Below are positions 4,664 through 21,934 of a stretch of 64,000 nt of DNA, one piece after another. A model generated the notes under the pieces. It did no database searches and had not been told where the DNA came from. It worked only from the letters and a program-made list of their open reading frames with translations. The translations under genes and the position numbers were made by a program. Source of the stretch: Gemmatimonadaceae bacterium (GTDB lineage: Bacteria > Gemmatimonadota > Gemmatimonadetes > Gemmatimonadales > Gemmatimonadaceae); contig DAINRQ010000030.1 in assembly GCA_036741775.1 (NCBI GenBank), positions 477-64,476 on the forward strand. The letters are read 5' to 3'. How positions within the stretch are numbered: position 1 is the stretch's first letter; each line of letters opens with the position of its first letter.

Positions 4664-5809
4664 CTACCGACCCGCGCCGACCGTTCGGCCGAGCGACTTC
4701 GTCTTGCGCTCGAGGCCCGCGATGAGCGAGTCGAACGACTTCTGGAAGCTCGCGAGCCCGTCCACGAGCAGCTTGTCGGTGACGTCGCCAAAGTCGATAC
4801 CCACTTCGGCCAACTGCGCCATGACGCGCTCCGCCTCGCGGACGTTCTCGTCGACCGTGCGCGCGACCACGCCGTGATCGGTGAAGGCGTCGATGGTCGC
4901 GGGCGGCATGGTGTTCACCGTGTCGGGCCCGATGAGCTCCTCCACGTACACGACATCGCGATAGGCGGGATTCTTCGTGCTCGTGCTCGCCCACAGCGGC
5001 CGTTGGAGACGCGCCCCGCGCGCGGCGAGGGCCGCCCATCGCTCGCTCGCGAACATCTCGCGAAAGAGTCGGTACGCGAGCTTCGCGTTCGCGATCGCCG
5101 CGCGCCCCTTGAGCGCCATTGCGCGATCCTTTGCCGAGGCATCGCCCTTCGCGGCGATGGCGTCCAGCCGCTTGTCCACCTCGGTATCCACGCGACTCAC
5201 GAAGAAGCTCGCGACCGACGCCAGCCCCGAGATGTCATGCCCTGCCGCGAGACGGTCCTCGAGCCCGCCCATGTACGCCTCGATGACCCGGCGATGGGCG
5301 TCGATGGAGAAGAGCAGCGTGATGTTGACGTTGACGCCGTCCGCGATGAGCGCGCGCACGGCCTTCGCGCCCTCGATCGTGCCCGGGATCTTGACCATCA
5401 CGTTAGGCCGCCCGACGGTGGCCCAGAGCCGCTTCGCCTCCGCGATCGAGGCCTCCGCGTCGTTCGACACCCCGGGAGAAACCTCGATCGACACGAAGCC
5501 GTCGCCGCCCTGCTCTGCCCGGTAGACATCGGCAAAGATGTCACAGGCGGTTCGCACGTCCGTCGTCTCGACGAGCTCGAATAAGTCCCACGCCGTGAGC
5601 CCCGGCGGCGCGGCGACGATCTGCTCGTCGTACTCCGTACCCTCGGCCAGGGCCTTCTCGAAGATGGTCGGATTGGACGTCATCCCTGTAAGCGCGCTGT
5701 CGCGGATCATGCGAGCGAGCTCGCCGTTGCGCAGGATCGTCCGGTCAATGAAGTCCAGCCAGACCGACTGGCCAGCCTCGTGTAGCGCGTGGAGCCGATT
5801 GGTCGTCAT
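4664..5809 (-). CDS. tal: transaldolase
   Basis: GQSVWLDFIDR, MTSNPTIFEKA and VMVKIPGT regions. Trimmed to ATG 5809 (MTTNRLHAL...). Confidence 0.9.
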   Translation of the reverse strand: MTTNRLHALHEAGQSVWLDFIDRTILRNGELARMIRDSALTGMTSNPTIFEKALAEGTEYDEQIVAAPPGLTAWDLFELVETTDVRTACDIFADVYRAEQGGDGFVSIEVSPGVSNDAEASIAEAKRLWATVGRPNVMVKIPGTIEGAKAVRALIADGVNVNITLLFSIDAHRRVIEAYMGGLEDRLAAGHDISGLASVASFFVSRVDTEVDKRLDAIAAKGDASAKDRAMALKGRAAIANAKLAYRLFREMFASERWAALAARGARLQRPLWASTSTKNPAYRDVVYVEELIGPDTVNTMPPATIDAFTDHGVVARTVDENVREAERVMAQLAEVGIDFGDVTDKLLVDGLASFQKSFDSLIAGLERKTKSLGRTVGAGR

Positions 5810-5987
5810 TCCAGGTGTGCGCTCGAAGTGGTGTGCCTGACAACGGTCAGCCCGCCGGAATGCCGGGGACCTACGCCGAAACATATCACCTGCCGGCGAG
5901 GGGCATAGCCGCTACGCGTGTGCTCGCCTCGAGGCCCTCGAAGCCCTCGACACCGGTCGTGCAGCCACCTCGTACCGACGAAACGAC

Positions 5988-7958
5988 ATGATGGCGGTCC
6001 GCAGGGGCGTTCGCGCCACACTCCGCTGGTGGCGCTCCCTTTCGCTCGCCGCTCAGCTCGTTCTCACGAACGTCGGTGTCTTCGTGATCTGGGCCGTCAT
6101 GACCCAGCAGATTGTCGCGTTCCAGGACGGACGCCGCGAAGACGCCGAGATGGCTGCCGTCCGGGCGGGCTCCGCGGTTCTTGTGGCTGCACAGATCGGG
6201 CCGGCTCTCATCAATCTCGAGAGCGGAGAGCGCGGTTTCGCGGTCACCGGCGACTCCGCTTTTCTCAACGCGTACCAGCTCGGTCGCGGCCAGCTCGACA
6301 TCGCGCTCGACACGCTGGCCAAGCTCGCGGTCGGGAACGAGGAGCTCCGGCTCGCCACGTCTCGCCTCGACGAAACGACGCGCCTCTGGACGCACGCGGC
6401 GACGATTCACATGGCAGCGCAACCGTCCAACGGCGCCGCGTCACCACGTACGCGCACGATGGGACGTCGCGTCGCGGCGCTCATGGACAGCTCGCGTGCG
6501 GCATCCGCCGCCATCGAGCGGCTCACGCGGGTTCAGTCCGAGCTCCGGGCCGCTGAAGCGACGGTGCAACTCGAGCTGGATGCCCGGGAGACGCTCCTCG
6601 TCCGCTTCCTGCTGGTCGCGTTGATCGTTCTCGCCACGGTGGTGAGCCTCCGTCGCGTCACGGGCACGCTGGACGCAATCGTGTTCGATGCGCGCGCGCT
6701 CGCGGCCGGCGACCACCGGGCAGCGACGCGCTCCACCGCGGGCGGGAGCCGCGAGCTGGCGCAGCTCGGCGCGGCGTTCGGAACGCTCGCCGTCGCGGTG
6801 GCCGAGCGCGAAGATGGTCTGCGCGACGACATTCGCCAGCTCAAGGAAGTCGAACGACTCAAGACCGAGTTCGTCTCGACAGTCAGCCACGAGCTGCGAA
6901 CGCCGCTCACGGCGATTCGGGGCGCGCTCGGTCTCGTCCTCGCCGGCACCGCGGGGCCTGTCGCACAAAAGACGCGGGATCTCATGCAGATCGCGTTGCA
7001 AAACACGGAGCGCCTCATCCGGCTGATCAACGACATCCTGGATGTCGAGCGCATCGAGTCGGGGCACCTCGTAGTGCGACGCGAGCCGTGCGAGCTCGCG
7101 GACATCCTGCGCACGACGGTCGACTCACTTCGCACCGTCGCGATGGAAGCACAGGTCACGCTCGCACTCGACGGCGAGCGAAGCGCAGTCGTGACCGGGG
7201 ACCCGGATCGCCTCGTGCAGGTCTTCATGAACCTCATCTCGAACGCGGTGCGGTTCTCGCCTCGGGGCGAGACGGTGACCGTGTCCCTTCGCACCACGCC
7301 GACCAGCGCGGCGGTGTTCGTAACCGACCGCGGTCCGGGAATCCCTCTGGAGTTCCGCCGTCGCATCTTTGGCAAGTTCCAGCAGGCCGATCCGGCCGGG
7401 GCGGCAGGGGGCGCGGGGCTCGGACTCGCCATCGTCCGCGCGATCGTCGAACGCCACGGCGGCTCGATCCGGTTCGACAGCGCGCCCGGGCACGGCACGA
7501 CGTTCATTACCGAGCTCCCCTACACTGCTCCCGCGACATCGACGGCCACGGGCCACGGCGAACACCGCCTTCTTGTCCTCGACGACGACCGCGACATGTT
7601 GAGCGTACTGCGGTCGCTCTGCGAGCCGCTGGGTGCCGTCACCGCGGTCGGTTCGACTGACGAGGCATGGCGCGCGCTCACGAGCGCCGCGTATGACGCG
7701 ATCGTCATCGACCCGAACGCGCCGGAGTCACCGGGCATCGCGCTCGTGCGACGTATTCGCGAGCTCCCCGGCTACGCCGATGTGCCTGTACTCGTGTTCT
7801 CCTCGCGGGAATTCTCGGACAGCGAGCTGTCGGGGGTAACGCTGGCGCCGTCGCACGCATTCGTGAAAACGCGCGACCGTGAGCAGGACCTGCTGCTTCG
7901 CCTCCGAGCCGTGCTCGCGGTACGCCGCCCCCGGCGACCGGTGGCGGTTCCGGCCTAA
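5988..7958 (+). CDS. hybrid sensor histidine kinase (TM, CHASE3-like, HAMP, HisKA, HATPase, C-terminal REC)
   Basis: LESGERGFAVTGDSAFLNAY (CHASE3-like), H-box [13 protein letters not shown]-boxes DRGPGIP and GLGLAIV, C-terminal LLVLDDDRDM...VIDPNAP receiver. Confidence 0.85.
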   Translation: MMAVRRGVRATLRWWRSLSLAAQLVLTNVGVFVIWAVMTQQIVAFQDGRREDAEMAAVRAGSAVLVAAQIGPALINLESGERGFAVTGDSAFLNAYQLGRGQLDIALDTLAKLAVGNEELRLATSRLDETTRLWTHAATIHMAAQPSNGAASPRTRTMGRRVAALMDSSRAASAAIERLTRVQSELRAAEATVQLELDARETLLVRFLLVALIVLATVVSLRRVTGTLDAIVFDARALAAGDHRAATRSTAGGSRELAQLGAAFGTLAVAVAEREDGLRDDIRQLKEVERLKTEFVSTVSHELRTPLTAIRGALGLVLAGTAGPVAQKTRDLMQIALQNTERLIRLINDILDVERIESGHLVVRREPCELADILRTTVDSLRTVAMEAQVTLALDGERSAVVTGDPDRLVQVFMNLISNAVRFSPRGETVTVSLRTTPTSAAVFVTDRGPGIPLEFRRRIFGKFQQADPAGAAGGAGLGLAIVRAIVERHGGSIRFDSAPGHGTTFITELPYTAPATSTATGHGEHRLLVLDDDRDMLSVLRSLCEPLGAVTAVGSTDEAWRALTSAAYDAIVIDPNAPESPGIALVRRIRELPGYADVPVLVFSSREFSDSELSGVTLAPSHAFVKTRDREQDLLLRLRAVLAVRRPRRPVAVPA

Positions 7959-9925: not shown

Positions 9926-10078
9926 CAAACGGTCATGGAAACGGATAGGCGGACGCCATGAGGAATACCGGCGAGAAGCCGGCCCGGGGCGCCGTGACGT
10001 CGTACACTCCAAAGACGTCCCAGAGCTGAGGCCGGTCACGCCACACCGCCGGCCAATCACCCCGCACACCGATCGCGG

Positions 10079-10444
10079 ATGAAGCTGCTGTGCGCCGACG
10101 ACGAGCCGGATCTCAGAACGATCCTGGAGCTCGCGTTATCGATCGATCCCGGGTTCGAGGTCGAGATCGTGTCGTCGGGGACGGAGCTGCTCGAGCGGGC
10201 GTCGCGCGGCAGCTACGACGCGTTCGTGCTGGACGGCATGATGCCTGGGCTGGACGGCTACGAGACCTGCCGCCGGCTCAAGGGCGATCCGAGCACGGCT
10301 GGCATTCCCGTGATCTTCCTCACCGCGAAGACCCAGCAGGACGAGATGCGCCGCGCCCTCGCCCTCGGCGCGACGGCGTGCCTGGTGAAGCCGTTCGATC
10401 CGCTCACGCTCGCGATGGAGCTGCGCGCGGCGCTGGAACCGTAA
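10079..10444 (+). CDS. single-domain response regulator (CheY-like)
   Basis: 121 aa with CADDEPD...LDGMMPGLDG...LTAK...VKPF. Divergent from the HPt/REC gene. Confidence 0.9.
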   Translation: MKLLCADDEPDLRTILELALSIDPGFEVEIVSSGTELLERASRGSYDAFVLDGMMPGLDGYETCRRLKGDPSTAGIPVIFLTAKTQQDEMRRALALGATACLVKPFDPLTLAMELRAALEP

Positions 10445-10446
10445 CA

Positions 10447-10616
10447 ATCGGGAATCGGGACTCGCCTCTGGGACGCCACCGTCCCGCGAGCCGTTCCCCT
10501 GGCATTTCAGGCCGCTCGCGAGAGCGACCGTGCCGCCGCCCGAGTCATCTTCGTCATCCGTCCGTCCCGTCCGTCCTCTCCTCCTGCCGTTCCCGGACCG
10601 GTCGCGAAGCTCGGAG
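10447..10616. repeat. structured repeat, family 1, copy B (single module preceded by 2x CGGGAAT-like heptamers)
   Basis: ...gggacgccaccgtcccgcgagccgttcccct..caggccgctcgcgagagcgaccgtgccgccgc..catcttcgtcatcc..gccgttcccggaccggtcgcgaagctcggag aligns with the right-hand module of copy A and with 61244..61390. Lies between convergent genes. Confidence 0.8.
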
Positions 10617-10617
10617 A

Positions 10618-10638
10618 ACCTAACGAGCCCGCCTAACG
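10618..10638. other. two direct copies of the abundant octamer (ACCTAACG, GCCTAACG) 13 nt apart
   Basis: aaCCTAACGagcccGCCTAACGg. The second copy supplies the TAG stop (10635..10633) of the GAF/PAS kinase. See the octamer finding. Confidence 0.9.
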
Positions 10639-12942
10639 GCCAACTACCGAACCAGGGGACTCCGTCAAACCCGACTCGTTCGGAGCCGCAAGGCGGACTG
10701 GCAGCCACGCGGTGAAGGTCGTGCCGACGCCGAAGCTGCTCTCTACCTCCACGCTCCCGCCGAGCCGCTCGAGGAGCTTCCTCGTGATGCTGAGGCCGAG
10801 CCCCGTCCCGCCGAACTCGCGCGTACGCGACTGGTCGATTTGCCGGAAGTCCTCCCAGATCGCGGCGAGGTGCTCGCCCTTGATGCCGATCCCGCTGTCG
10901 CTCACCGCAATGCACACCTGGTCCCCCGTGCGGGTCGCGTTCAGGCGCACCCACCCCGTATGGGTGAATTTGACGGCATTCGAGAGGAGGTTGAGGAGGA
11001 TCTGCTTCAGCTTCGTGCGGTCGGTGTAGACGAACAGGCGGTCGTCATCCACCTGGTATGTCGCCTCGAGCCGTTTTTTCCGGACCATCGGCTCGAGCTG
11101 CTGCGCCACCTCGGTCACGACGTCCGCGAGCGGGATCTCCTCGAGGTGGAGCGGCATCTTCCCGGCCTCGATCTTCGCGAGGTCGAGGATGTCGTCGATG
11201 AGGGCCTGCAGATGCTGCCCGGCAGCGCGGATCCGCTCCAGGCTGTCGATCTGCTGGGTCGTGACGTCGCCGAACAGGCGGTCGAGGAGCAGCGACGTGT
11301 GCCCGAGCACGGCGTTGAGTGGCGTGCGCAGCTCGTGCGACATGCTCGCGAGAAACTCGGACTTGAGCCGGTTCGCGCGCGCGAGTTCCTGCGACTGCCA
11401 TTGCAGCTTGAGGTTCTGCGCCTCGAGGTCCGCCGTGGCGGCGCGGATGCGCTCCTCGAGCTGCGCCGAGAACTTCTTGAGCTCCTCGTACAGCCGCTCG
11501 TTCTCGACCTGTTTCGTCAGGTCGTGCACGACCGACACGATGACGCTCGGCTCGCCGTGCTCGTTGATGATCTTGCCCGACACGACCTCGACTGGGAGCT
11601 CGCGCCCGCTGGACGGGTCGGTGAGCGTCATCCGCGACCGACGCGAGATGGCGGTGCCTAACGTGAACTCCGAGATGAAGGACGTGAACTTCGTGTCGTT
11701 GCCACGGATGGCCTGGATGGCACCGTAGTTTCGTTTGCCACCCTCGCGCACCTGGAACAGCCGCTCTGCCTCCTCGTTCATCATGATGATGTTCGACTGG
11801 TCGTCAGTCACGAGGATGGGGTCGGCGACGTTCTCCAGAATGAGGTTGAGGCGATCGCGCTCGCGCGTGGCTTCGAATTCGGCGAGTCGCACGCGCTGCA
11901 TCTGGCGCTCGAGCTCGTGGCCGGCACGGCGGAGGTCCGTCACGTCTCGCAGCACCGAGAGTACCGCCCCCGCCCCCTGGGCCTCGCCGCCGAGCGGGTG
12001 CGCCAGCACCTCGAACAGCAGGTCGGTGCCCTCGCCCGGGTCGACGAGGTTCAACTCGCGCGGCCCGCTCTGGAGCCCGCCGGTCATCACCGCGCGCGCG
12101 AGGTACGACGTGAACAGCAGGTTATTGACCTCCACGGCGCGGCGGCGCCCTTCGGAGTCCGACTCGCGCGTGTTGAGTAGCCGCTCCGCGCGCGCGTTCT
12201 GGACGATGATGTCGTTCGCGGCGTTCGTGATGACGATGGGGTCGGGCAGCGAGTCGATGATGCTCGTTAGGCGATCGCGCTCCTTCGTCGCCCGGTCCGC
12301 GGTCTGGCGGACCGCGGTCGCCATTCCCATGCGCGCCAGAATGGGCCCGGCAAACATCGCGATGCGTGCCAGCGCTGCGACCACCTCCGGGTCCGCGTCG
12401 CCCTCGATCACGGCCACCCCGGCGGGCGCCTGGCCGAACCACTCCGTGTTGCGTGCCGGGCGCGCCCCGAACGTGAGCCGCAACGGACCCATGAGGTCCA
12501 TCGCGCGCGCGAGCGGAAGGACGGGCGGGCCGGTGCGGTCGTCACCGCGCGGCAGCGGGAGCGCGGTCCAGTGGCGGAATGCCAGCCGCGGGTCACGAGT
12601 CGAATCCGGCCCCGCGACGATCGGGTGGAGCGACAACGCCGACACCACGATGGGGTGCGACAGGTCGCTCACCGACAGCGTCGGAATGCCACGCCCGTCG
12701 AACCCGACGAGCGCGACGACACCGAGCGACTCCATCGCCGGGTCGAGCAGACGAACGAACCCGCGGCTCGAGCCGGACAGCTCCCCGAGCCGCGACAGCA
12801 GGAACGCGGCCGACGACGCGAGGTCGGGTGCCTCGGCGAGTGTGGCGAGCAGCTCGTCGAGGTCCGTCGCACCGCGCGGCGCCGCTTCCGCGTGCGTCAG
12901 ATCACGGACCGACTTGGTCAAGACGCCGGCGTAGCTCGGCAT
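10633..12942 (-). CDS. sensor histidine kinase with long GAF/PAS-type N-terminal region
   Basis: H-box [16 protein letters not shown]; [15 protein letters not shown] and GTGLGLSI boxes. ATG 12942 overlaps the gvpA 3' end by 41 nt, so the start is somewhat uncertain (in-frame TTG at 12921). Confidence 0.85.
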
Positions 12943-13204
12943 TCTCGCGCATCACTCGCTCGAGCTCCGAGTCGGTGTCAGCGACGAGCTCGCGCGGGCG
13001 CGACACGGGCGCGGTGATGCCGACCGCTTCCGAGTACTTCAAATACGTGTCGATCGATGCGACGACGACACGCGCTTCGACCGTAACGAGGTCAATGCCG
13101 ACGAGTGAGACGCGGACCCACGCGTCGATGACGATTCCCTTGTCGAGAACCCGATCCAGAACATCGATGAGGGAACTCCCGCTCGGGGAGCGTTCTACGG
13201 CCAT
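12902..13204 (-). CDS. gvpA: gas vesicle structural protein GvpA (with C-terminal extension)
   Basis: [54 protein letters not shown] is the canonical GvpA core. GGAG lies 9 nt upstream of the ATG. Confidence 0.9.
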
Positions 13205-13232
13205 TAGAGCCTACTCCGCAGGTGAGAAGGTC

Positions 13233-13559
13233 TTACGTCTTCCGGCGCGTCGATCGCTGGGACTCGGCGGTGAGCTGCTCCAGTCCGCGCTCGATGCGCT
13301 CGAGCCGCCGCTCGATTTCGCCCGCAAGAAGCGGGCTCGACGGTGCAGAGGTCAAGCGCGGATCATGGCGCCACCAGTTCAACCCGATCTGCTCCGCTTT
13401 GTCGATCGAGCACACGAGCAGACGCACCTGGATCGTGAGCAGTTCGACGTTCGCGAGATTGATCTTGATGTCACCGGCGATCACCAAGCCCTTGTCCAGC
13501 ACGCGGTCGAGAATCTCGACCAGCCCGTGACCGCGCGATGGTGTAACGAGATCGGCCAA
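13233..13559 (-). CDS. gvpJ: gas vesicle protein GvpJ/M (GvpA family)
   Basis: [48 protein letters not shown] start with GGAG upstream. Confidence 0.8.
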   Translation of the reverse strand: MADLVTPSRGHGLVEILDRVLDKGLVIAGDIKINLANVELLTIQVRLLVCSIDKAEQIGLNWWRHDPRLTSAPSSPLLAGEIERRLERIERGLEQLTAESQRSTRRKT

Positions 13560-13596
13560 GCAGGAACACTCCGACGGCCACTCCCCGCGGCCGTGG

Positions 13597-13956
13597 TTAG
13601 CGTAAGCGACCCAATGGGCCCAAATCGATCTGCAGGTCTTCGTCAGAGAGCCCGAAGACCTCCTTCAACTGCCCCATGCGTTCGTCGAGCTTGAGCAGCG
13701 CAAGCCCCAGCCGCTCGATCTCCTCATCGCTCAAGCCGCCCCCGTCCATCCGCCTGACCGCTTGATGCTCCAAGACCTTACGCACCACTTCAATCAGGGT
13801 CAAGACGAGCCGAGCCAGTCCTTGCTCCACTCGCTCGGGATCCGCGTTGATCCGATCGGGCAACGCGCTCGCGATCTCCGCGAGCTTCGTCTCGAGCTCC
13901 CGCCGAAGGTCGTCACCGGCTGATCCGCTGGTGGGCACCCCTGCTTCGTCAGGCAT
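13597..13956 (-). CDS. gvpK: gas vesicle protein GvpK
   Basis: RINADPERVEQGLARLVLTLIEVVRKVLEHQAVRRMDGGGLSDEEIERLG matches the GvpK family core. Confidence 0.85.
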   Translation of the reverse strand: MPDEAGVPTSGSAGDDLRRELETKLAEIASALPDRINADPERVEQGLARLVLTLIEVVRKVLEHQAVRRMDGGGLSDEEIERLGLALLKLDERMGQLKEVFGLSDEDLQIDLGPLGRLR

Positions 13957-14662
13957 CGCCCGCGAACGAATAGGGTGGAAAGGGTCCCAGGAGCGAGGCC
14001 TCTATGCCGCCGGTCGCAAGACACGACGCAATGGTCGCCTGCGCGGCGTCGAGCTCTGGTCGCCGAACGAGTAGCGGAAAGAACGCGAGCCGGCGCGCGG
14101 CCTCGCATCGCTGCAGCTCCACGATGAACGGCTTGGCGGCCTCGCGCACGGCGTGTCGGATCTCCTCACACCCGACTTCGCGCGCCAGATCAGCGCGCCC
14201 CTCACGAGCGAGACGCCGAAGAAACGCCGTCCCGCGACGCGTCGCCGGGTCTGCGCCGGGTTCGGGCCTGGCCGTTTCGGGCACGGGCGTCGCCGGCTCC
14301 TGTGGCTCGCGGCCGCGCGAGACGACCACCCGCAGCTCGACGCACCCGGCGACGCGGGCGAGGCGCTCGTGAAGGGTCGCACGCCGGGACGCGATCGCGG
14401 ATGCGGCCGCCCCGTCGTCCGCGAACGTCTGCCCGAACCGGATTGGCAACGGGGTTTCGCCGGATTGCATGGCCGCGGCGCACACGGCGTCGTGTGCCTT
14501 CACCCGCTCCAGCGTCGAGGCGACGGGCACATCGGGTACGTCGCTCACCCATGCCGTGAGCCCTGTAGCGAAAAGCGACCGGACCGCAGCGCCATTCAGT
14601 CCGGTGAGATCCGACGGCGCCGGCCGCGGGTCGTTTCGAATGCAGTACAGATATGTGGCCAT
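13949..14662 (-). CDS. gvpL: gas vesicle protein GvpL/GvpF family
   Basis: Trimmed to ATG 14662 (MATYLYCI...). Contains PLPIRFGQTF and ends ...GPFPPYSFAGDA, typical of GvpL_GvpF proteins. Its stop overlaps the gvpK start by 8 nt. Confidence 0.8.
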   Translation of the reverse strand: MATYLYCIRNDPRPAPSDLTGLNGAAVRSLFATGLTAWVSDVPDVPVASTLERVKAHDAVCAAAMQSGETPLPIRFGQTFADDGAAASAIASRRATLHERLARVAGCVELRVVVSRGREPQEPATPVPETARPEPGADPATRRGTAFLRRLAREGRADLAREVGCEEIRHAVREAAKPFIVELQRCEAARRLAFFPLLVRRPELDAAQATIASCLATGGIEASLLGPFPPYSFAGDA

Positions 14663-14675
14663 CGATACCTCGGCC

Positions 14676-14885
14676 TCAGTGATCCGGTTCGCCCGCAGCC
14701 GCTTTCCGCTCCCGCGCGCGCGCCGTCTCGACCGCGGTGAGCACAACGGTCAGGTCGAGCTGAATGAGGTCGATGTCCGCGACCGAGATCGTGACGCTCC
14801 CGGCGATGACGGCGCCTTTGTCGAGAACGCGGTTGATGAGGTCCGAGAGCTCCAGTGGGGCGTTGTCGATCGTCGAGTCCCTCAC
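14676..14885 (-). CDS. small GvpA-fold gas vesicle protein (GvpM/GvpS-like), 69 aa
   Basis: Hidden inside spurious ORF 14676..15524. GTG 14885 follows GGGGGAGG by 5 nt and overlaps the upstream gvpF/L TGA (GTGA). Reads LSDLINRVLDKGAVIAGSVTISVADIDLIQLDLTVVLTAVETA. Confidence 0.75.
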   Translation of the reverse strand: MRDSTIDNAPLELSDLINRVLDKGAVIAGSVTISVADIDLIQLDLTVVLTAVETARARERKAAAGEPDH

Positions 14886-15703
14886 GATGCCTCCCCCTCG
14901 CCGTGCCCCTCGATCGTCGCACCGCGCCTCGCGAAATGGTACGGAGGCCACGGTCCCGTAAACTCGATGCGAAAGCCACGAGCGTCGTACTCCCGCACGA
15001 GGTCCGTAACGGCAGCACGGAAGTTCTCGATGCGATCGTGTGCAACGAGGAACGACGCGTCGAGCACCGCGATGCCGGTTTGCGCGCCGGTTGGCGCTGG
15101 GAGCGGATCTTCCACCGATTCGAGCGCGCACGCCGCGAGTCGCTCGAACGCGCGAGTGCCCACGTCTCGCGAAACAGTCGCGAGCTCCTCTTTCGTCATC
15201 GCCTCGAGCTTCCGGCCGAGCAAATACCCTTGGCCCGGTGCCGAAGCCTCGGTCACCTGCCGCGCCAGTTCCGCGATCGTGGGACTGTACTCGGCCAGGA
15301 CGCTTCGAAGCTCGCCGTCCACGCGAAACATGCGCACGCCGTACTCCCGCCCACGCCCGACGTGCGCCAGCAGCCCGCGAAGCTCGGAGGCGCGAGCGCG
15401 CAGCATGCCGCGCACCGCGTCCTCCGACCGGAAGAGCGAGAGGAGCGGCAACGGCACCAGCGGTCCGGTATCGCTCGCCCAGGTGAGAACCCGGTCGTGC
15501 GCGGCAGCGCGCGGCCCAAGCCACGCAACGTCCGCGAGCCGGTCGTCCAGCCCCTCACCATAGGAGGGGCTCACACGGCTAACGACTGCGGCGAGCTCGC
15601 CTTCCCGGACGAGCAAAACCGGCGTCTCGTCCACGCCCGCCGGCGCGCCGCCGAAATCGGCGTCGCCGGGAACGACGGCATAGATGTACACGAGGTCAGA
15701 CAT
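14882..15703 (-). CDS. gas vesicle protein GvpF/GvpL family
   Basis: Trimmed to ATG 15703 (MSDLVYIYAVV...). Contains PLPLLSLFRS and ends ...FTGPWPPYHFA. Confidence 0.8.
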   Translation of the reverse strand: MSDLVYIYAVVPGDADFGGAPAGVDETPVLLVREGELAAVVSRVSPSYGEGLDDRLADVAWLGPRAAAHDRVLTWASDTGPLVPLPLLSLFRSEDAVRGMLRARASELRGLLAHVGRGREYGVRMFRVDGELRSVLAEYSPTIAELARQVTEASAPGQGYLLGRKLEAMTKEELATVSRDVGTRAFERLAACALESVEDPLPAPTGAQTGIAVLDASFLVAHDRIENFRAAVTDLVREYDARGFRIEFTGPWPPYHFARRGATIEGHGEGEAS

Positions 15704-17612
15704 CTGGGTGGAGCACTCTCCAGCCACCGAGCCAGTCCAGCAGGCGCGCCGGGCCGACGAGTGGCGGCGCGACATCCGGCGCAACAAACTGCCCGAGCGG
15801 TCCCGCGACTGGAAGAGGCAGCGGCGCACACACCGCACGATTCCACACGAGCGCCGGGACGTAGTTGCCGAGCGCTCGCACGCGTTCCACCACGCGAACG
15901 GACTCGCTGCGCACGATCGGCTCGTCGAGCGCCACGACCACGACACCGGCACGCGCCGGGTCGTGAAGCATCTCGCGCACTGAGCGGGTGCGCCGCGCGA
16001 ACGTCAGGAGTTCGGCCGACGTTTCCCCACCTCCGGCGAGCTCACGGTACTTGAGCATCAGTCGCAACAACCGGTGAGACCAGTCGAGCGCGAGTGCCGG
16101 CATCTCGAGCAGCCTGATGAGATGTCCCGTTGGCGCAGGATCGATCACGATTCGGTCGAATGTCCCCTCGGTGATCATGTCACCGAGCCACACGAGCGCA
16201 TAGAGCTCGTCGATCCCGGGGGGAGCGAGCGCGAGGAGATCGCGTGCGACGGCCCGGTCGTGCTGCGCGTCGACGCCGGGGCCGAGGAGGGCGTCGAACG
16301 CGACGTCCACCCGCGCCTGGTACGCGTCGCGCCACCGCCCGAACTCGGCAGTCGCATCGACCTGGCGGGCGACGAGGCCGAAGCCCTTTTTCACCACGTG
16401 ATCGCTGGAGCCGACCGGTCGCTCGAGCGCATCCGCAACGGACGGCGCCGGGTCCGTGGACACGAGGAACGTGCGAGCGCCGGACCGCGCAGCCGCGAGA
16501 GCCAGCGCACAGGAGATCGTCGTTTTCCCGACGCCGCCCTTGCCGCCCACGATGAGTACAGGCGGAAGCGACTCGACGACGGGCCCGGCGGGTGACAGCG
16601 ATGCGAGAGCGCGGGCGCGAGATCGACCCGCCCGCACGCGCGGCTGGCGTGGCCGCGAGCCACCTGGCGCTGCGCTCGCGGCGGCCTGGGTACGCAGCTG
16701 CCGAACGCCAGCGATCCACCGCGTGATGTCATCTGCCCCTCCGCCCAGGCCGGCCAGCTCGGGAACGGCGAACGAGCGCACCCCGGGCGCGACCGCGCGA
16801 ACCCGATCCGCGGCGCCGGTGGCGTCGCCGCTCTGACCGCGACCCACGGCGTTGACGAGCACGACACGAACAGGCACGCCCAGCTCGCCTAACGCGATCG
16901 CGTACCGCTCCGTTTCGGAGACGACGACCGGCTCGGCGCGCGTCACCAGCACGACCCCGGTGCGCTCACCATCGGTCAGCAGGCGGCGGAGCCGCTCGAC
17001 CTTGCCGCGCAGATCGGCGAGAAACGCGTCGGCCTCGTCGGTGCGGTAGCGCCGGAGCAGCGCGGAGACCATGAACCGGTGCTTCGCCTGCATCGTCTCG
17101 AGCAGGTCGATGACAGCGTGAAACGTCTCCGGCAGCGCGAGGAGACGAAGCGTGTGGCCGGTCGGTGCCGTGTCGAGAATCACGCGGCTCCACGTCCCTG
17201 TGTCCGCCAGATCGGCCAACGCGAGCAATGCCATGGTCTCGTCGACTCCGGGCATCGCCGCGGCAACGAGGCCGTCGATGTCATCGCGGTCGAGGTACGT
17301 CCCGCGGTCGATGATGGTGGCGATCACGTCGCCCCACTCGCCGAGAAACGCCGTCCGCGCGGCGTTGGCGTCGAGCTGCGCGGCGGCGAGACCCGTAACG
17401 GTTTCGAGCGCGCGCGGTTTGCCCGCGAGCGCTGTGCCGAGCACGTCGCCGAGCGTGCCTGCCGGGTCGGTCGAGAGGATGAGCGTCGAGCAACCGCGCC
17501 GCGCACTGTGGAGCGCGAGGGCTGCAGCGCAGGTCGTCTTGCCCACGCCGCCCTTGCCACCGACGAGCGTCCACGGGGAAAGCGACGCGAGGAGCGCGTC
17601 GATCCCCGTCAT
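15696..17612 (-). CDS. tandem two-domain ArsA/GET3-family P-loop ATPase embedded in the gvp operon
   Basis: Two P-loops (VGGKGGVGKTTCAAALA; VGGKGGVGKTTISCALA) and two ArsA-type signatures (ILDTAPTGHTLRLL; VIDPAPTGHLIRLL). ATG 17612 overlaps the gvpG stop (ATGA), and its stop overlaps the next gvpF/L start (ATGTCTGA). Confidence 0.8.
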   Translation of the reverse strand: MTGIDALLASLSPWTLVGGKGGVGKTTCAAALALHSARRGCSTLILSTDPAGTLGDVLGTALAGKPRALETVTGLAAAQLDANAARTAFLGEWGDVIATIIDRGTYLDRDDIDGLVAAAMPGVDETMALLALADLADTGTWSRVILDTAPTGHTLRLLALPETFHAVIDLLETMQAKHRFMVSALLRRYRTDEADAFLADLRGKVERLRRLLTDGERTGVVLVTRAEPVVVSETERYAIALGELGVPVRVVLVNAVGRGQSGDATGAADRVRAVAPGVRSFAVPELAGLGGGADDITRWIAGVRQLRTQAAASAAPGGSRPRQPRVRAGRSRARALASLSPAGPVVESLPPVLIVGGKGGVGKTTISCALALAAARSGARTFLVSTDPAPSVADALERPVGSSDHVVKKGFGLVARQVDATAEFGRWRDAYQARVDVAFDALLGPGVDAQHDRAVARDLLALAPPGIDELYALVWLGDMITEGTFDRIVIDPAPTGHLIRLLEMPALALDWSHRLLRLMLKYRELAGGGETSAELLTFARRTRSVREMLHDPARAGVVVVALDEPIVRSESVRVVERVRALGNYVPALVWNRAVCAPLPLPVAGPLGQFVAPDVAPPLVGPARLLDWLGGWRVLHPDV

Positions 17613-17914
17613 TCGTCGCTGTCGGTCTCCCGAGCGACGCGCACGGGGCCGGCCGCCGTAGCCATCCCGAGCCGCGCGCGCCACTCGCGGACCTCGCGGA
17701 GTCGCTGCATGAGTGCGGCCTCGCGACGTGTGTACTCCGCGTCGTCGATGTCGCCGAGCTCGAGCAGCATCTGCAGCTCCATGAGCTCCTGCTTCACCGG
17801 CGCGTCATCCACGAGCTCCTCCTCGACCACGCGCTGGACCTTGCCTAACGACCAGCGGATGCCGGCGACGGGACCGGCGATGGGAAAGAACAGCAGCTTG
17901 GTCAGGAGGCCCAT
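17609..17914 (-). CDS. gvpG: gas vesicle protein GvpG
   Basis: MGLLTKLLFFPIAGPVAGIRWSLGKVQRVVEEEL...LQMLLELGDIDDAEYTRREAALMQRL fits the GvpG pattern. Confidence 0.8.
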   Translation of the reverse strand: MGLLTKLLFFPIAGPVAGIRWSLGKVQRVVEEELVDDAPVKQELMELQMLLELGDIDDAEYTRREAALMQRLREVREWRARLGMATAAGPVRVARETDSDE

Positions 17915-17932
17915 AACGGGAACAGGGAACCC

Positions 17933-18739
17933 TCAGTTGGCTTTCTCCAACTTCAACTTGATGTTGACGAAGTTGTACGGCGGCCACGGCCCCGTGTACT
18001 TGAACTGCAAGAGCTCCTCGTACCGGCGACTCACTTCCTTCACCTTGTCGTCGAACGCGCGCTCCTGGGTCCGCTCGACGAGGAACGCGGCGTTCAGGAT
18101 CATGCGGTCGCCGATGACCTTGTTACTCCGACTAGCCACGGCGACGGGTTTGAGCGCCTCGTGAATGTCGGCGACGTAGCGGCTCTGCACCCCCTCGAGC
18201 GCCGATTCCACGAGCCGGCCGAGCTGCATCCGGGCGAAGTACGTGGACGACGCCGTGTTCCTGCTGATCTCATCCTTGAGACGCCGGATCTCGTCGTTCT
18301 CGCGCTCGAGGTTCGCGATGACTCGCTCTCGCTCCCACAGGACCTTGAGACCGAACTCGATCTTGTCCTGCATCTTGTCGAGCACGTCGCTGAATGCCTG
18401 GTAGGTCGAGCGCAGGAGCTCGGTGACATCCTCCTCCGAGCGGAATACCGTCCCGAACGACATCGGGATCACGGTGAACTCGCGCATGACCGTCTCGTTG
18501 ACGAACTCGTGCGCGAGCACATGCTCGCGCGTGGGGTCGTAGATGACGAGCGGCGTGTCACTGACGATCGCCGCGAGATCGCGGTAGTGGACCGTGTAGA
18601 CGCGCTGCCCACCACCAATCCCTACGCTGCCGAAGTCACGCGGCTTGTCGAGCCGGATGATGCAGTACACGTACTTGCCATCGACCGCGGGTTGCGCGAG
18701 CGACGGTGTATCGGTCCGGACGGTCTGCGGTTCGGTCAT
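17933..18739 (-). CDS. gvpF: gas vesicle protein GvpF
   Basis: Trimmed to ATG 18739 (MTEPQTV...). KYVYCIIR, TVIPMSFGTVFRSEEDV and ...YTGPWPPYNFV. First gene of the operon. Confidence 0.85.
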   Translation of the reverse strand: MTEPQTVRTDTPSLAQPAVDGKYVYCIIRLDKPRDFGSVGIGGGQRVYTVHYRDLAAIVSDTPLVIYDPTREHVLAHEFVNETVMREFTVIPMSFGTVFRSEEDVTELLRSTYQAFSDVLDKMQDKIEFGLKVLWERERVIANLERENDEIRRLKDEISRNTASSTYFARMQLGRLVESALEGVQSRYVADIHEALKPVAVASRSNKVIGDRMILNAAFLVERTQERAFDDKVKEVSRRYEELLQFKYTGPWPPYNFVNIKLKLEKAN

Positions 18740-19092
18740 CGCGGGGGGGTCCCGGTTTGGCGTCGCCTGCACGAAGCCCCCGAATGTGCGGGGAGCGTCG
18801 GCAGAAGGTAGCTCCAGGGCTTGGCGGCGGGAATGGTCCCTGCCATGCAGTAGGACGAAACGACTGTCAGTTCGGACGATAGGAGCCGCGTGCCGCGCCG
18901 TTGCGAGCCCGCCTTGCCCGCAGAACGCACCGGCCGCGAGGGTCGCCGTGCAGGTCAGCATCCGTCTCGCCAGCCAGGCCACGTGGCGTGAGTTGGCCGC
19001 TCTTACAGCCCTGTTCGCCCTCGCCCACCTCGCCGTCACGATCCTCGGATTCGGATTCGGGCTCACGGAACTCTGTGGGGCTCCGACGGCTC

Positions 19093-19455
19093 ATGAATCT
19101 CAATGAGGAGTCGAACCTGCCCACGTTCTACTCCTCCCTTCTGCTGGTCGGCGCGACGCTGCTACTGACGGTGCTTGCGGTTACCGCCTGGCGACGGGGC
19201 GGCGGCGCCGCTGCGATTCCAAAGCCGACGCGGCCGCCGCCCTCGAGGGCCGCGTACCGCACGACAGAGCGATACGCAAGCGAGCAGCTCGTCGGACGTG
19301 ACGCATCGGTGAACACCGAGCTGCGGGCACGGCGAATACGACGGACAGCTCCGATTCGAAAAGCCGAATGTGCCCCAGCCGATGGAAAAGGGGCTGCCGA
19401 AGCAGCCCCTGGAGATTGCTCGCTTTACGACGAGCAGCTCAGCCGCACTCGCTGA
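19093..19455 (+). pseudogene. possible remnant of a membrane-protein gene (only the first ~35 codons look coding)
   Basis: MNLNEESNLPTFYSSLLLVGATLLLTVLAVTAW has GC-rich third positions and one TM helix. After about 19200 the frame loses coding character and runs through the nrdJ terminator. Confidence 0.2.
19384..19410 (-). terminator. rho-independent terminator of nrdJ
   Basis: Minus strand reads AGGGGCTGC-ttcg-GCAGCCCCT followed by TTTTCC, 29 nt after the nrdJ stop. Confidence 0.7.
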
Positions 19456-21934
19456 AGCCACACACGTGGCACTTCACGCACCCCTCGGCGTACTCCAGCT
19501 GCGATCCGCAATCAGGACAGGTTCCAATGAATGACTCAGCGCCCGAGTCGAAGCTCGACTGTGCCTGCTCGCCGGCAGGGGTACTGTGTAGTACGGTGAC
19601 CTCCTCGCGAACCGGCGACGCGGCGGACGGACCGAGGCTCTCACGCAGCAGGTCCTGCTGTACGCCGAGCTGCTTTTCCTGATACCAGTCGTAGAGCGCG
19701 ATACCGATCGCGTCAGGCACCGAGAGAACCTTGTGAGGCCCGAGGCCAACCGCGCGGTCGGACGAAATGCCGCGGAGCTGCTTGTGGATCTCCATGAGCG
19801 GAATCCCCGAGCGCAACGCCAGCGAGATGAGTCGTCCCATCGCCTCGGCGTCCGCCATCGCGGACCCACCGGCCTTGCCGAGGTTGATGAATACCTCGAA
19901 CGGCTGCCCGCGATCGTCCTCGGTGATGTGGACGAACATCGTGCCCAACGGCGTTTCCTTACGGATGGACGTGCCGCGCAGCTTGTCGGGGCGCGACCGC
20001 TTCTGGCGGCGCTGGAGATTTTCCGCCTCGGCATCGTAGAGCGCCTTCTTGAGCCGCTCCACCTCCGCGTCGAGCTCGGCGATGGTGCCCTTGAGCTCCG
20101 CGAGCGCGCGTTTGTCGGTCGGCGCGCCATCACGCTCCGACTTCGCCTTGTCGGTCGCGCCCGTGGAGAGCACCTGGTTGTCGCGCGAGCCGTCGCGGTA
20201 GACTGTGACGCCCTTGCACTTGAGGTCGTACGCGAGCTCGTAGATCGCGCGAACGTCGGCGACTGTGGCGGTGTGCGCGAAGTTCGTCGTCTTCGAGATG
20301 GCCGAGTCGCAGTGCTCCTGGAAGGCTGCCTGCATGCGCATGTGCCACTCGGGGGCGATGGAGTTGGCGGTCACGAACACGCGCTGCCAGCGCTCCGGCA
20401 CTTCGGGGAAGTCCACCCGTCCCTCGCGGGCGATGCGCTCCATGAGCGCGTCGGAGTACCACCCTTCCTTCGTCGCGATGGCGACGAAGTCCTCGTTCAC
20501 GTCCGGCATCATCACGCCGGCCTGGTTGCGCATGAACGCAACAGCGAAGAGCGGCTCGAGGCCCGACGAACAGCCCGCGATGATGGAGATCGTGCCCGTC
20601 GGCGCCACCGTCGTGACGTTGCAGTTGCGGAGCAGCTGCATTGGACGGATGCGCTTCCCCTCGCTGTCGCGCGCGCACGTCTCGTCCGGGCCCCAGATGG
20701 AGCGGGCCCACTCGGGGAACGCACCGCGCTCGTTCGCGAGCCGCTCGCTCTCCTTCTTCGACTCTACGTCGACGAACTGCATGACCTTGCGGCCGAACTC
20801 CACGCCTTCGCGCGAGTCGTAGGCGATCCCGAGCCTGACGAGCGCGTCGGCGAACCCCATGACGCCGAGTCCGATGCGGCGGATCCGCTTCGAGAGCGCG
20901 TCGATCTCCGGCAGCGGGTATTTGTTGACGTCGATGATGTTGTCGAGGAAGTGCGTCGACAGGGCGATGTCGGCCGCGAACGCATCCCAGTCCAGCTTCC
21001 CGTCGCGCACGTAGTAGCCGACGTTGATGGAGCCGAGGTTGCACACGTCGTAGCCGAGGAGCGGCTGCTCGCCGCAGGGGTTCGTGGCCTCGTAGGCGCC
21101 GAGATGCGGGACCGGGTTGTAGCGATTCGCCTCGTCGATGAAGAAGCAGCCTGGCTCACCGGTGCGCCACGCACCGTCGATCATCTTGTCCCAGACCATC
21201 TGCGCATCGAGCTGCTTCACGACCTGCTTCGAGACCGGATCGATCAGGTCGTAGGTCGTGCCGGCTTTCACCGCCTGCATGAACGCGTCGGTGACGGCAA
21301 CGGAGATGTTGAAGTTCGTCACCTGGGTGAGGTCTTCCTTGCAGGTGATGAACTCGAGAATGTCCGGGTGATCGACGCGCAGGATGCCCATGTTCGCCCC
21401 ACGCCGGGTTCCGCCCTGCTTCACGGCGTCGGTGGACGCGTCGTAGAGCTTCATGAACGACACGGGGCCGCTGGCCACGCCAGTCGTGGACCGGACCATC
21501 GAGCCGTTCGGGCGCAGCCGGGAGAACGAGAAGCCGGTCCCGCCCCCGCTCTGATGGATGAGCGCCATCGAGCGCAGCGTGTCGTAAATGCCGTCGCGTC
21601 CGTTGGAGAGCGAGTCGGCGATGGGCAGCACGAAGCACGCGGACAGCTGGCCGAGCGGGCGCCCCGCGTTCATGAGCGTGGGCGAGTTGGGTTCGAACCG
21701 GCGCTCCGTCATGAGCGCATAGAACTGCTGCGCGGCCTCTGTGACGGCTCCCTCGTTCGCTCCGTACCGGCGGTCAGCTTCCGCAACGACCGTGGCCACC
21801 CGCCAGAACATGTCCTCGGGGGTTTCGGTCGGCTTCCCGCTGGAATCCTTCACCAGATAGCGCTTCTCGAGGACTGTGCGCGCGTTCTGGCTGAGGTCAG
21901 CGGGGCCGGCAGGGGGCTTCGAGGGTAGGGGCAT
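19439..21934 (-). CDS. nrdJ: adenosylcobalamin-dependent (class II) ribonucleotide reductase
   Basis: VLEKRYLVKD, NPCGEQPL, TVAPTGTISIIAG and C-terminal CxxC..CxxC (CPDCGSQLEYAEGCVKCHVCG). ATG 21934 is preceded by GGGAGAG 8 nt upstream. Confidence 0.9.
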   Translation of the reverse strand: MPLPSKPPAGPADLSQNARTVLEKRYLVKDSSGKPTETPEDMFWRVATVVAEADRRYGANEGAVTEAAQQFYALMTERRFEPNSPTLMNAGRPLGQLSACFVLPIADSLSNGRDGIYDTLRSMALIHQSGGGTGFSFSRLRPNGSMVRSTTGVASGPVSFMKLYDASTDAVKQGGTRRGANMGILRVDHPDILEFITCKEDLTQVTNFNISVAVTDAFMQAVKAGTTYDLIDPVSKQVVKQLDAQMVWDKMIDGAWRTGEPGCFFIDEANRYNPVPHLGAYEATNPCGEQPLLGYDVCNLGSINVGYYVRDGKLDWDAFAADIALSTHFLDNIIDVNKYPLPEIDALSKRIRRIGLGVMGFADALVRLGIAYDSREGVEFGRKVMQFVDVESKKESERLANERGAFPEWARSIWGPDETCARDSEGKRIRPMQLLRNCNVTTVAPTGTISIIAGCSSGLEPLFAVAFMRNQAGVMMPDVNEDFVAIATKEGWYSDALMERIAREGRVDFPEVPERWQRVFVTANSIAPEWHMRMQAAFQEHCDSAISKTTNFAHTATVADVRAIYELAYDLKCKGVTVYRDGSRDNQVLSTGATDKAKSERDGAPTDKRALAELKGTIAELDAEVERLKKALYDAEAENLQRRQKRSRPDKLRGTSIRKETPLGTMFVHITEDDRGQPFEVFINLGKAGGSAMADAEAMGRLISLALRSGIPLMEIHKQLRGISSDRAVGLGPHKVLSVPDAIGIALYDWYQEKQLGVQQDLLRESLGPSAASPVREEVTVLHSTPAGEQAQSSFDSGAESFIGTCPDCGSQLEYAEGCVKCHVCGFSECG

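Follow-up and report, generated by a model that had tools for sequence, protein, structure and literature searches.

A tandem ATPase of the Get3/ArsA family encoded within a compact gas-vesicle operon of a Gemmatimonadaceae bacterium

Introduction

ArsA-like ATPases encoded among gas-vesicle genes were first noted bioinformatically by Castillo & Saier in 2010, who reported two-domain ArsA homologues of ~634-637 amino acids (aa) inside the gvp operons of four phyla, with hosts in the Bacteroidetes/Chlorobi, a Geobacter, cyanobacteria and an acidobacterium (PMC2963123). The three arsenite cysteines are not conserved in these homologues, and the authors suggested that the ATPase might supply energy to a step of biogenesis other than the one served by GvpN (PMC2963123). 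The Polaribacter, Pelodictyon, Geobacter and Anabaena clusters encode GvpN and the ArsA homologue together; the acidobacterial cluster comprises arsA, two L/F genes, J, K and M, and gvpN is not listed for it (PMC2963123). Here we analyze a gas-vesicle (GV) operon with such an ATPase gene in a 64,000-nucleotide (64-kb) stretch of a Gemmatimonadaceae genome (assembly GCA_036741775.1, contig DAINRQ010000030.1), referred to below as the window.

The locus is a Gemmatimonadota member of the kind described in 2010. Its ATPase is 638 aa long, is encoded within the gvp operon and lacks the three cysteines, and thus fits the GV-linked ArsA homologues. Two domains and a gene placed inside the gvp operon, with no arsR, are also features of Clusters 4 and 6 in Castillo & Saier, which include proteins of Acidobacteria bacterium Ellin345 ('Aba1'), Geobacter uraniireducens, Pelodictyon luteolum and Nostoc PCC 7120. 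One Cluster 6 protein has C422 replaced by G, matching G442 in the window protein, and the Ellin345 cluster resembles the window in having no gvpN listed. The window differs from the 2010 clusters in its phylum and in its permuted gene order. The initial annotation of this stretch, which regarded ArsA/Get3 genes as absent from the described gvp sets, is contradicted by the 2010 paper, whose examples include the acidobacterial cluster without gvpN. That paper framed the protein as an 'energiser' rather than as a chaperone, and contains no kinase/receiver module, extended GvpA, coupling of gvpG to the ATPase gene or Get3-type CxxC motif. Features that appear to be new here are how widely the ATPase gene is linked to gvp genes, its coupling to gvpG, CxxC motifs of the Get3 type, an architecture that lacks gvpN and has an extended GvpA, and a two-component module embedded in the cluster. 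Our literature searches found no paper that links gas vesicles with Get3; the main text of Hurt et al. 2023 does not contain the word 'ATPase', and its supplements contain neither arsA nor arsenite.

The ATPase gene is embedded in a complete gas-vesicle operon

The nine genes of the operon lie on the minus strand between positions 18739 and 12902, in the order gvpF-G-[ATPase]-F/L-S-L/F-K-J-A, and are followed by the gene of a PAS histidine kinase. They overlap or are closely spaced, with no unassigned open reading frame (ORF) between them, and all nine are backed by Pfam matches (E-values 1e-15 to 1e-90; Table 1). An identical locus with the same gene calls is present on three public metagenome contigs (L001-L003). 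The core gvp set, consisting of gvpA and homologues of gvpF, G, J, K, L and M/S, is complete and contiguous. Judged by its gene content, this is a complete and compact GV operon of a soil Gemmatimonadaceae bacterium.

The ATPase gene is an integral, translationally coupled member of the operon. Its start codon overlaps the gvpG stop codon (ATGA, 17612-17609), and its stop codon overlaps the start of the second gvpF/L paralogue (ATGTCTGA, 15703-15696), as read directly from the sequence. Overlaps also join this paralogue to the gene of a 69-aa GvpA-fold protein (GTGA, 14885-14882) and the third paralogue to gvpK (ATGCCTGA, 13956-13949). The initial annotation had described the nine-gene operon and had considered the ATPase gene to be translationally embedded, not merely adjacent. 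Sequence, Pfam and the public gene calls bear out its coordinates, strands and overlaps, and the two overlaps on either side of the ATPase gene are exact.

Sequence and structural affinities of the ATPase

A profile search of the ATPase ORF, suggested in the initial annotation, returned Pfam ArsA_ATPase over two stretches (Table 1). Both halves of the protein carry the motifs GKGGVGKT, STDPA and D(T/P)APTGH, which are invariant among relatives down to 52% identity. The Walker-A Lys residues are K25 and K363, and the switch I Asp residues are D49 and D387. The protein is a pseudo-dimer formed by internal duplication, and both of its nucleotide sites are intact. Against the NCBIfam model for the GET3/arsA/TRC40 subfamily (TIGR00345) it scores 310 bits, above the cut-off of 135; against the ArsA equivalog (TIGR04291) it reaches 183.5 bits and fails the cut-off of 650. 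The best match in a sequence search of the PDB is Chlamydomonas reinhardtii ArsA1 (5zme, 2e-51), with E. coli ArsA (1f48, 3e-31) and single-domain Get3 both behind it. For a gvp-linked relative from a gvpN-containing cluster (L021), archaeal Get3 and ArsA1 are the top matches and both ArsA pumps score far lower. For a cyanobacterial-type relative (L034), ArsA1 comes first and Leptospirillum ferriphilum ArsA second, with E. coli ArsA far lower.

The AlphaFold2 model of the window ATPase (predicted local distance difference test score of 81) has exclusively ArsA and Get3 proteins as structural neighbors in Foldseek. Tandem ArsA and ArsA1 structures match it over the full length, with target-normalised TM-scores of 0.60-0.75, and archaeal and eukaryotic Get3 match over each half.

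ArsA1 is a tandem Get3-type factor, and its clients are true tail-anchored membrane proteins of the chloroplast. Like the window ATPase, it is a covalent pseudo-dimer with two P-loops and no arsenite Cys triad (5zme/5zmf). The two proteins share ~24% identity and a TM-score of 0.60, a comparison of an open crystal form with a closed-like model; ArsA1 has longer helical inserts and is not gvp-linked. Yeast, human and archaeal Get3/TRC40 share with the window ATPase the deviant Walker A motif, the switch I Asp, the DTAPTGHT motif and the length of the helical subdomain, but they are homodimers rather than a fused tandem, and the Get1/2/4/5 partners are missing from the window system. The ArsA pumps (E. 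coli R773, 1f48; L. ferriphilum, 9nbo) have the same tandem fold (target-normalised TM-scores of 0.62-0.75) and the same P-loop and DTAPTGHT signatures; the window protein differs from them in its missing Cys triad, its lack of ars neighbors, its failure against the equivalog and its placement in a separate clade.

In an alignment of 81 sequences (80 genomic loci plus the window), the equivalents of E. coli Cys113, Cys172 and Cys422 in the window protein are V116, A184 and G442. None of the 64 GV-clade sequences has a cysteine at any of these three metalloid positions, and all 17 true ArsA sequences used as outgroup have cysteine at all three. The neighbor-joining (NJ) tree splits the GV clade from true ArsA with a bootstrap of 100/100. 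After switch II, the helical subdomains of the gvp-linked proteins are ~14 and ~19 residues longer than those of true ArsA; they align along archaeal Get3 without large gaps and are of Get3-like length. Most gvp-linked ATPases also have a CxxC after a 'VN' motif in both halves, a position that we take to be the site of the Get3 zinc-binding motif. Homologues of the window ATPase share 51-76% identity with it among the 120 best-scoring clusters listed, all of which are metagenomic; those that are named belong to Gemmatimonadaceae. The nearest genomic relative, with 65% identity, is in a Gemmatimonadaceae metagenome-assembled genome (MAG), L006. As far as sequence comparison can tell, the ATPase belongs to the Get3/TRC40/ArsA family, is dedicated to GVs and stands closer to Get3/ArsA1 than to the pumps.

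Distribution of gas-vesicle-linked ATPases

We retrieved 80 genomic loci with the ATPase alignment, 63 of which fall into the non-ArsA clade. The ATPase gene is gvp-linked in 57 of these 63 loci, which span many phyla, including archaea and Doudnabacteria. Among the six non-linked loci, three are on truncated contigs, and the other three are cyanobacterial-type loci with full flanks and no gvp genes. In ~46 of the 57 gvp-linked loci gvpG is directly upstream of the ATPase gene, and a 4-nt or 1-nt overlap between the gvpG stop and the ATPase start occurs in 16 of the 48 measurable loci, window included. Loci with this overlap come from Gemmatimonadota, Thermoanaerobaculia, Desulfobacterium, Verrucomicrobiae and Planctomycetota. 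The initial annotation had called for a neighborhood survey of how often ArsA-like genes lie inside gvp clusters and whether this anticorrelates with gvpN; such genes are widespread there, and no general anticorrelation with gvpN emerged.

The linked loci can be described as four types (letters stand for gvp genes, HK for histidine kinase and RR for response regulator). Type I, found in Gemmatimonadaceae and Longimicrobiales, has the order F-G-ATPase-F-S-F-K-J-A-HK. Type II, J-A-HK-RR-F-G-ATPase-F-S-F-K, is a circular permutation of the two modules of type I and is found in Terriglobia and other Acidobacteriota, Methylomirabilota, Rokubacteria, Labilithrix and one Planctomycetota MAG. Type III, from Thermoanaerobaculia, is F-G-ATPase-F-S-K-J-A without a kinase. 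Type IV is diverse and has gvpN, usually together with gvpO and hsp20; its hosts are Desulfobacterota, Chloroflexota, Geobacteraceae, Spirochaetaceae, Verrucomicrobiae, Planctomycetota, a Gemmatimonas, a Doudnabacteria MAG and two archaeal MAGs. At least 16 type IV loci encode gvpN together with the ATPase. L021, from an uncultured Desulfobacterium, has the order gvpF-G-ATPase-J-K-A along with gvpN; the cluster of Desulfobacterium vacuolatum DSM 3385 (FWXY01000008:1268-24724) forms GVs in E. coli at 30 °C (PMC10344784). None of the 33 loci of types I-III has gvpN, gvpO or hsp20 in the available flanks, which extend ~10 kb on each side in 17 of the 33. MAGs with clusters of these types include CAWHHI01 (L006), CAWGEI01 (L041), CAVSLA01 (L053) and CAVVEL01 (L010).

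In the NJ tree of the ATPase, bootstraps are 100 for the type I core, 92 for type II, 100 for type III and 83 for type IV plus the cyanobacterial group. Within Gemmatimonadaceae, at 51-65% ATPase identity, and across several phyla, the clusters retain their gene content and order. A single origin of the clusters without gvpN (hereafter N-less) was considered and is unsupported, with a bootstrap of 13 for the node that unites the N-less types.

The three cyanobacterial-type loci with full flanks (L025, L034 and L035; match at 10001-11941 and equivalents) encode tandem Get3-like ATPases that form a clade with a bootstrap of 100, nested with gvp-linked proteins. They have no gvp genes within 10 kb and no CxxC motifs. 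From sequence and context, these proteins may represent an ArsA1-related tail-anchor factor with a housekeeping role. As regards direct orthology to ArsA1, their score against 5zme (9e-56) does not exceed what would be expected of the clade as a whole.

MAGs of Doudnabacteria (L036), an archaeon (L038) and Altiarchaeota (L043) contain gvp clusters, partial or nearly complete, that include both the ATPase gene and gvpN. Predicted GV genes in a Doudnabacteria MAG are unexpected, the binning being taken as deposited. In two MAGs labelled Dehalococcoidia, two gvpN copies flank the gvp cluster that carries the ATPase gene (L030, 2678-3635 and 13455-14441; L071, 1188-2153 and 9220-10179). Each copy in L030 is split over two frames, which may reflect frameshifts or assembly errors. 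In L006, both the gene for ribonucleotide reductase and the second gvpF/L are split among several frames (5289-7849 and 11787-12825); these look like indel errors of long-read assembly, not real pseudogenes.

Missing accessory genes and an extended GvpA

We searched the window with seed tblastn, a P-loop scan and targeted Pfam models; a gene filter based on GC content at third codon positions was too noisy to serve as a gene caller. Tblastn searches for GvpN, O, C, H, I, D and E, seeded with Octadecabacter and Halobacterium proteins, returned no significant match in the window. The best match of these seeds was one of GvpD inside the PriA gene (E = 0.003). The only other Walker-A ORFs in the window encode PriA and an ABC transporter, and none is a GvpN-like P-loop ORF. 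No hsp20 was detectable in the window, nor was an array of GvpC-type 33-aa repeats. The tblastn, P-loop and repeat scans thus agree with the earlier statement that GvpN, GvpC and GvpO are missing from this stretch.

The GvpA of the window consists of a 66-aa canonical core and a 34-aa C-terminal extension, which is encoded by the last 34 codons of gvpA (12902-13003) and contains an SRP motif and an amphipathic helix (...ENAELRRRL...). The core has 71% identity to Octadecabacter GvpA over 66 aa. All N-less clusters have such an extension; their GvpA proteins are 91-123 aa long with a conserved SRP motif. The amphipathic helix is found in types I and II and a basic tail in type II. In gvpN-containing clusters GvpA is canonical, with 66-73 aa and no extension. 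Taken by their genes, the N-less clusters are a coherent type, defined by the ATPase, an extended GvpA and often an embedded kinase/receiver, that occurs in several phyla. Because they also lack gvpO and hsp20 and have an extended GvpA, they suggest a distinct assembly regime.

An embedded kinase and receiver

The ATG of the kinase gene at 12942 lies 41 nt inside gvpA, which confirms the overlap with the gvpA 3' end that had been pointed out initially. The domain assignment as a GAF/PAS kinase stands only for PAS: the protein has PAS_4, PAS, HisKA and HATPase_c domains, and its N-terminal 225 aa have no Pfam match at E <= 0.05, with no GAF domain detected. Kinase orthologues (E-values from 1e-122 to 0) directly follow gvpA in 10 of the 12 type I loci, window included, and in 10 of the 11 type II loci. 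Their sensor region is poorly conserved (13-33% column identity). The PAS/PAS kinase is thus a genuine, conserved component of such clusters.

The gene of a 121-aa receiver-only response regulator is convergent with the kinase gene in the window, and its product is likely the partner of the kinase, as judged from sequence and position. All nine type II loci examined (L010, L014, L042, L051, L053, L055, L062, L067 and L078) have a receiver-type ORF on the same strand between the kinase gene and gvpF, within a gap of ~300-600 nt, so the type II gvp operon holds a complete two-component pair. In L040 a receiver-type ORF lies just upstream of gvpF. A kinase and a receiver are likewise encoded among the gvp genes of a Methylocella tundrae plasmid, and the Serratia gvp cluster reportedly contains the two-component genes gvrB and gvrC. 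The window kinase differs from these types in being a cytoplasmic PAS/PAS protein encoded directly after gvpA, with no sigma-54 activator.

Proposed function and alternatives

The ATPase very probably has a role in GV biogenesis and not in arsenic metabolism. GvpF binds the hydrophobic GvpA2 first and is then superseded by GvpG, a sequence of events read as chaperoning (Iburg et al. 2024, PMC11445434). The ATPase would fit this GvpF/GvpG stage because it would be made in step with GvpG, the overlap of stop and start codons setting a fixed proportion between the two. As the best explanation overall, we infer from the analogy with Get3 that the protein, driven by ATP, chaperones hydrophobic Gvp proteins or hands them over, a reading to which we give an even chance. 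By this mechanism the ATP-bound, closed ATPase would shield a hydrophobic stretch in a freshly synthesised Gvp protein, as Get3 and ArsA1 do with their clients, and ATP hydrolysis would release the client at the growing vesicle. Candidate clients are GvpA, GvpJ, GvpS and the helix at the N terminus of GvpG. The kinase and the receiver-only regulator would couple expression of the operon to a signal. The narrower claim, that the protein is a holdase or hand-over factor whose clients are hydrophobic, falls a little short of an even chance. The analogy predicts nucleotide-dependent capture of specific Gvp segments.

Several points weigh against a Get3-like chaperone. No Gvp protein is tail-anchored, the hydrophobic parts being central in GvpA, GvpJ and GvpS and N-terminal in GvpG, so the analogy with Get3 is loose; the putative clients also differ from those of Get3 in that their target would be a protein shell and not a lipid membrane. 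The CxxC zinc motif of Get3, kept by most GV-clade relatives, has been lost from both halves of the window ATPase and of its Gemmatimonadota relatives. The Halobacterium, Octadecabacter and Methylocella-type clusters have no such ATPase, and because many functional GV clusters do without it, the protein would be an accessory factor. The formation of gas vesicles by this cluster type is itself predicted from its genes, and our literature searches found no reported experiment on gvp-linked ArsA/Get3 homologues.

Other readings account for less of the evidence. The Pfam family name and the source annotations, which call the homologues 'arsenite-transporting ATPase', would make the protein a genuine arsenite-stimulated pump subunit that lies among gvp genes by chance, and the tandem ArsA fold is indeed alike (Foldseek E = 1e-25 to 1e-31). 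However, the Cys triad is replaced throughout the GV clade, the score is far below the cut-off of the ArsA equivalog, and the gvp linkage is kept in 57 loci. No arsD, arsB, acr3 or arsR was found among the called neighbors within ~10 kb, which comprise only gvp and two-component genes. In the four true ArsA loci inspected (L070, L076, L080 and L083), ArsD precedes ArsA in all four and ArsR, ArsC or Acr3 is near in two. Because the triad and the ars neighbors are missing, the equivalog failed and the best PDB match is ArsA1, the ATPase is not an arsenite pump; it passes TIGR00345 as well, and the pump role that the initial annotation had named as a possible refutation of its reading is not borne out. 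As far as sequence goes, the pump reading is close to refuted, and we hold it to be extremely improbable. The name 'arsenite-transporting ATPase' is a misnomer for the GV clade, and if the ATPase is dispensable, our finding shrinks to a correction of that annotation. ParA-type ATPases position other bacterial organelles, and the protein shares with ParA/MinD the deviant Walker A motif KGGxGK[ST], along with weak Pfam and NCBIfam matches to CbiA, ParA and MinD. A role in positioning GVs or controlling their nucleation, instead of chaperoning, is nevertheless improbable: these matches span only the ~40-residue P-loop, whereas Get3/ArsA models span both halves whole; a fused pseudo-dimer is incapable of the ATP-driven monomer-dimer cycle that ParA/MinD needs; and the structural neighbors are, as noted, of the ArsA and Get3 kind alone. 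It is similarly improbable that the cluster is a non-functional relic, or makes a product unrelated to buoyancy in a soil organism, with no dedicated role for the ATPase. The N-less loci are mostly from MAGs of soil or sediment, habitats in which floating brings no obvious benefit, our literature search found no cultured Gemmatimonadota with gas vesicles, and gvpN, needed for elongation elsewhere, is missing. Yet the ten genes are all intact and tightly coupled, their content and order are conserved within Gemmatimonadaceae and across several phyla, and the catalytic motifs are all invariant, which together form a pattern of purifying selection. A regulatory NTPase with a GvpD-like role is more improbable still.

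A further possibility, which partly overlaps with the chaperone reading, is that the ATPase replaces GvpN in the N-less clusters and provides the energy step for the elongation of bicones into cylinders. GvpN is considered to spend energy on the handling of shell proteins or on elongation, and its loss arrests vesicles as bicones in the systems studied (PMC11445434). In the window and the 33 surveyed N-less loci, which represent three or more ATPase lineages, the available flanks hold no gvpN, and the ATPase is the only NTPase of the clusters in three lineages; the same clusters lack gvpO and hsp20 and have the extended GvpA. As a general rule, however, substitution fails. All four combinations occur: both genes (type IV), the ATPase only (types I-III), gvpN only (Halobacterium, Octadecabacter, Methylocella) and neither (Rhodococcus), so the two genes are not simple alternatives. 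The at least 16 clusters with both are joined by the 2010 examples, gvpN could sit elsewhere in the N-less genomes, and the N-less lineages are not monophyletic. GvpN, although likewise an NTPase encoded in gvp clusters, has an unrelated fold (AAA+ against SIMIBI). The substitution proposed in the initial annotation therefore does not stand as an anticorrelation across clusters, but the lineages in which the ATPase is the sole NTPase and GvpA is modified leave room for a lineage-specific takeover; on balance we consider it unlikely.

More speculatively, the N-less clusters might represent a distinct GV 'genotype' of soil and sediment phyla (Gemmatimonadota, Acidobacteriota, Methylomirabilota/Rokubacteria, Myxococcota and Planctomycetota), in which a Get3-like tandem ATPase, not GvpN, drives the delivery or insertion of a helix-extended GvpA under a dedicated PAS-kinase/receiver switch. 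The C-terminal helix of GvpA might then replace functions of the GvpC or GvpO type. We regard this genotype as rather unlikely; if true, a machine for targeting membrane proteins would have been recruited to build a lipid-free protein shell.

A Get3-like ATPase encoded in dozens of gvp clusters has been overlooked since the bioinformatic note of 2010. It touches on two open problems, namely how the very hydrophobic GvpA stays soluble and inserts, and what the energy step attributed to GvpN does, and it is relevant to the engineering of gas vesicles as ultrasound reporters. Nine-gene clusters as compact as this one, which do without gvpN, gvpO and gvpC, could serve as minimal systems.

Feature coordinates and neighboring genes

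Table 1. Genes and regions of the gas-vesicle locus and its surroundings, with positions in the window
Feature	Positions	Strand	Evidence
gvpF, first gene of the operon, 268 aa	18739-17933	minus	Pfam GvpL_GvpF 9.5e-81; also called on L001-L003
gvpG, 101 aa, hydrophobic N-terminal helix followed by acidic coiled region	17914-17609	minus	Pfam GvpG 2.1e-20
Tandem (pseudo-dimeric) Get3/ArsA-fold P-loop ATPase, 638 aa	17612-15696	minus	Pfam ArsA_ATPase 3.2e-90, two stretches
gvpF/L paralogue 2, 273 aa	15703-14882	minus	Pfam GvpL_GvpF 1.1e-51
Small GvpA-fold protein, GvpS/GvpM-like, 69 aa	14885-14676	minus	Pfam Gas_vesicle 6e-15
gvpL/F paralogue 3, 237 aa	14662-13949	minus	Pfam GvpL_GvpF 5e-36
gvpK, 119 aa	13956-13597	minus	Pfam GvpK 8e-33
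gvpJ-like, 108 aa, TTG start	13559-13233	minus	Pfam Gas_vesicle 1.2e-16
gvpA, major shell protein, 100 aa	13204-12902	minus	Pfam Gas_vesicle; NCBIfam PRK09371 117.7 bits (cut-off 100)
Sensor histidine kinase, 769 aa	12942-10633	minus	Pfam PAS_4, PAS, HisKA, HATPase_c
Response regulator with a receiver domain only, 121 aa; gene convergent with that of the kinase	10079-10444	plus	Pfam Response_reg; NCBIfam receiver matches
Hpt and double-receiver protein, 619 aa	7976-9835	minus	Pfam Hpt, Response_reg
CHASE3 hybrid histidine kinase, 656 aa	5988-7958	plus	Pfam CHASE3, HisKA, HATPase_c, Response_reg
Presumed promoter/regulatory region, 700-nt non-coding	18740-19438		Between class II ribonucleotide reductase gene (19439-21934) and gvpF

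For the 69-aa GvpA-fold protein, the top NCBIfam model is halo GvpM, with a score under its cut-off. The gvpJ-like protein has 42% identity to a GvpJ-like protein of Octadecabacter.

The Hpt/double-receiver protein is possibly a phosphorelay component. Only L006, the nearest relative, shares its gene and that of the CHASE3 kinase as neighbors of the gvp cluster, which makes a connection of these two genes with the cluster doubtful.

A scan of 10000-19600 for promoters and terminators gave nothing over the shuffled expectation, with no sigma-70 consensus upstream of gvpF, and the window has no Rfam match and no tRNAs. In the region upstream of gvpF, one contig annotation has a 184-aa ORF on the opposite strand, without a Pfam match. 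For two other proteins of the window, no exact database record was found, probably owing to differing start codons.

An orphan gene of the GvpL/GvpF family (212 aa, Pfam 7e-30; 46730-47368, minus strand) lies 28 kb from the gvp operon. It has an S-adenosylmethionine-dependent methyltransferase gene directly upstream (47370-48188, minus strand) and a Ser/Thr protein kinase gene downstream (45717-46658, minus strand), and it could represent a fourth, separately controlled F/L paralogue.

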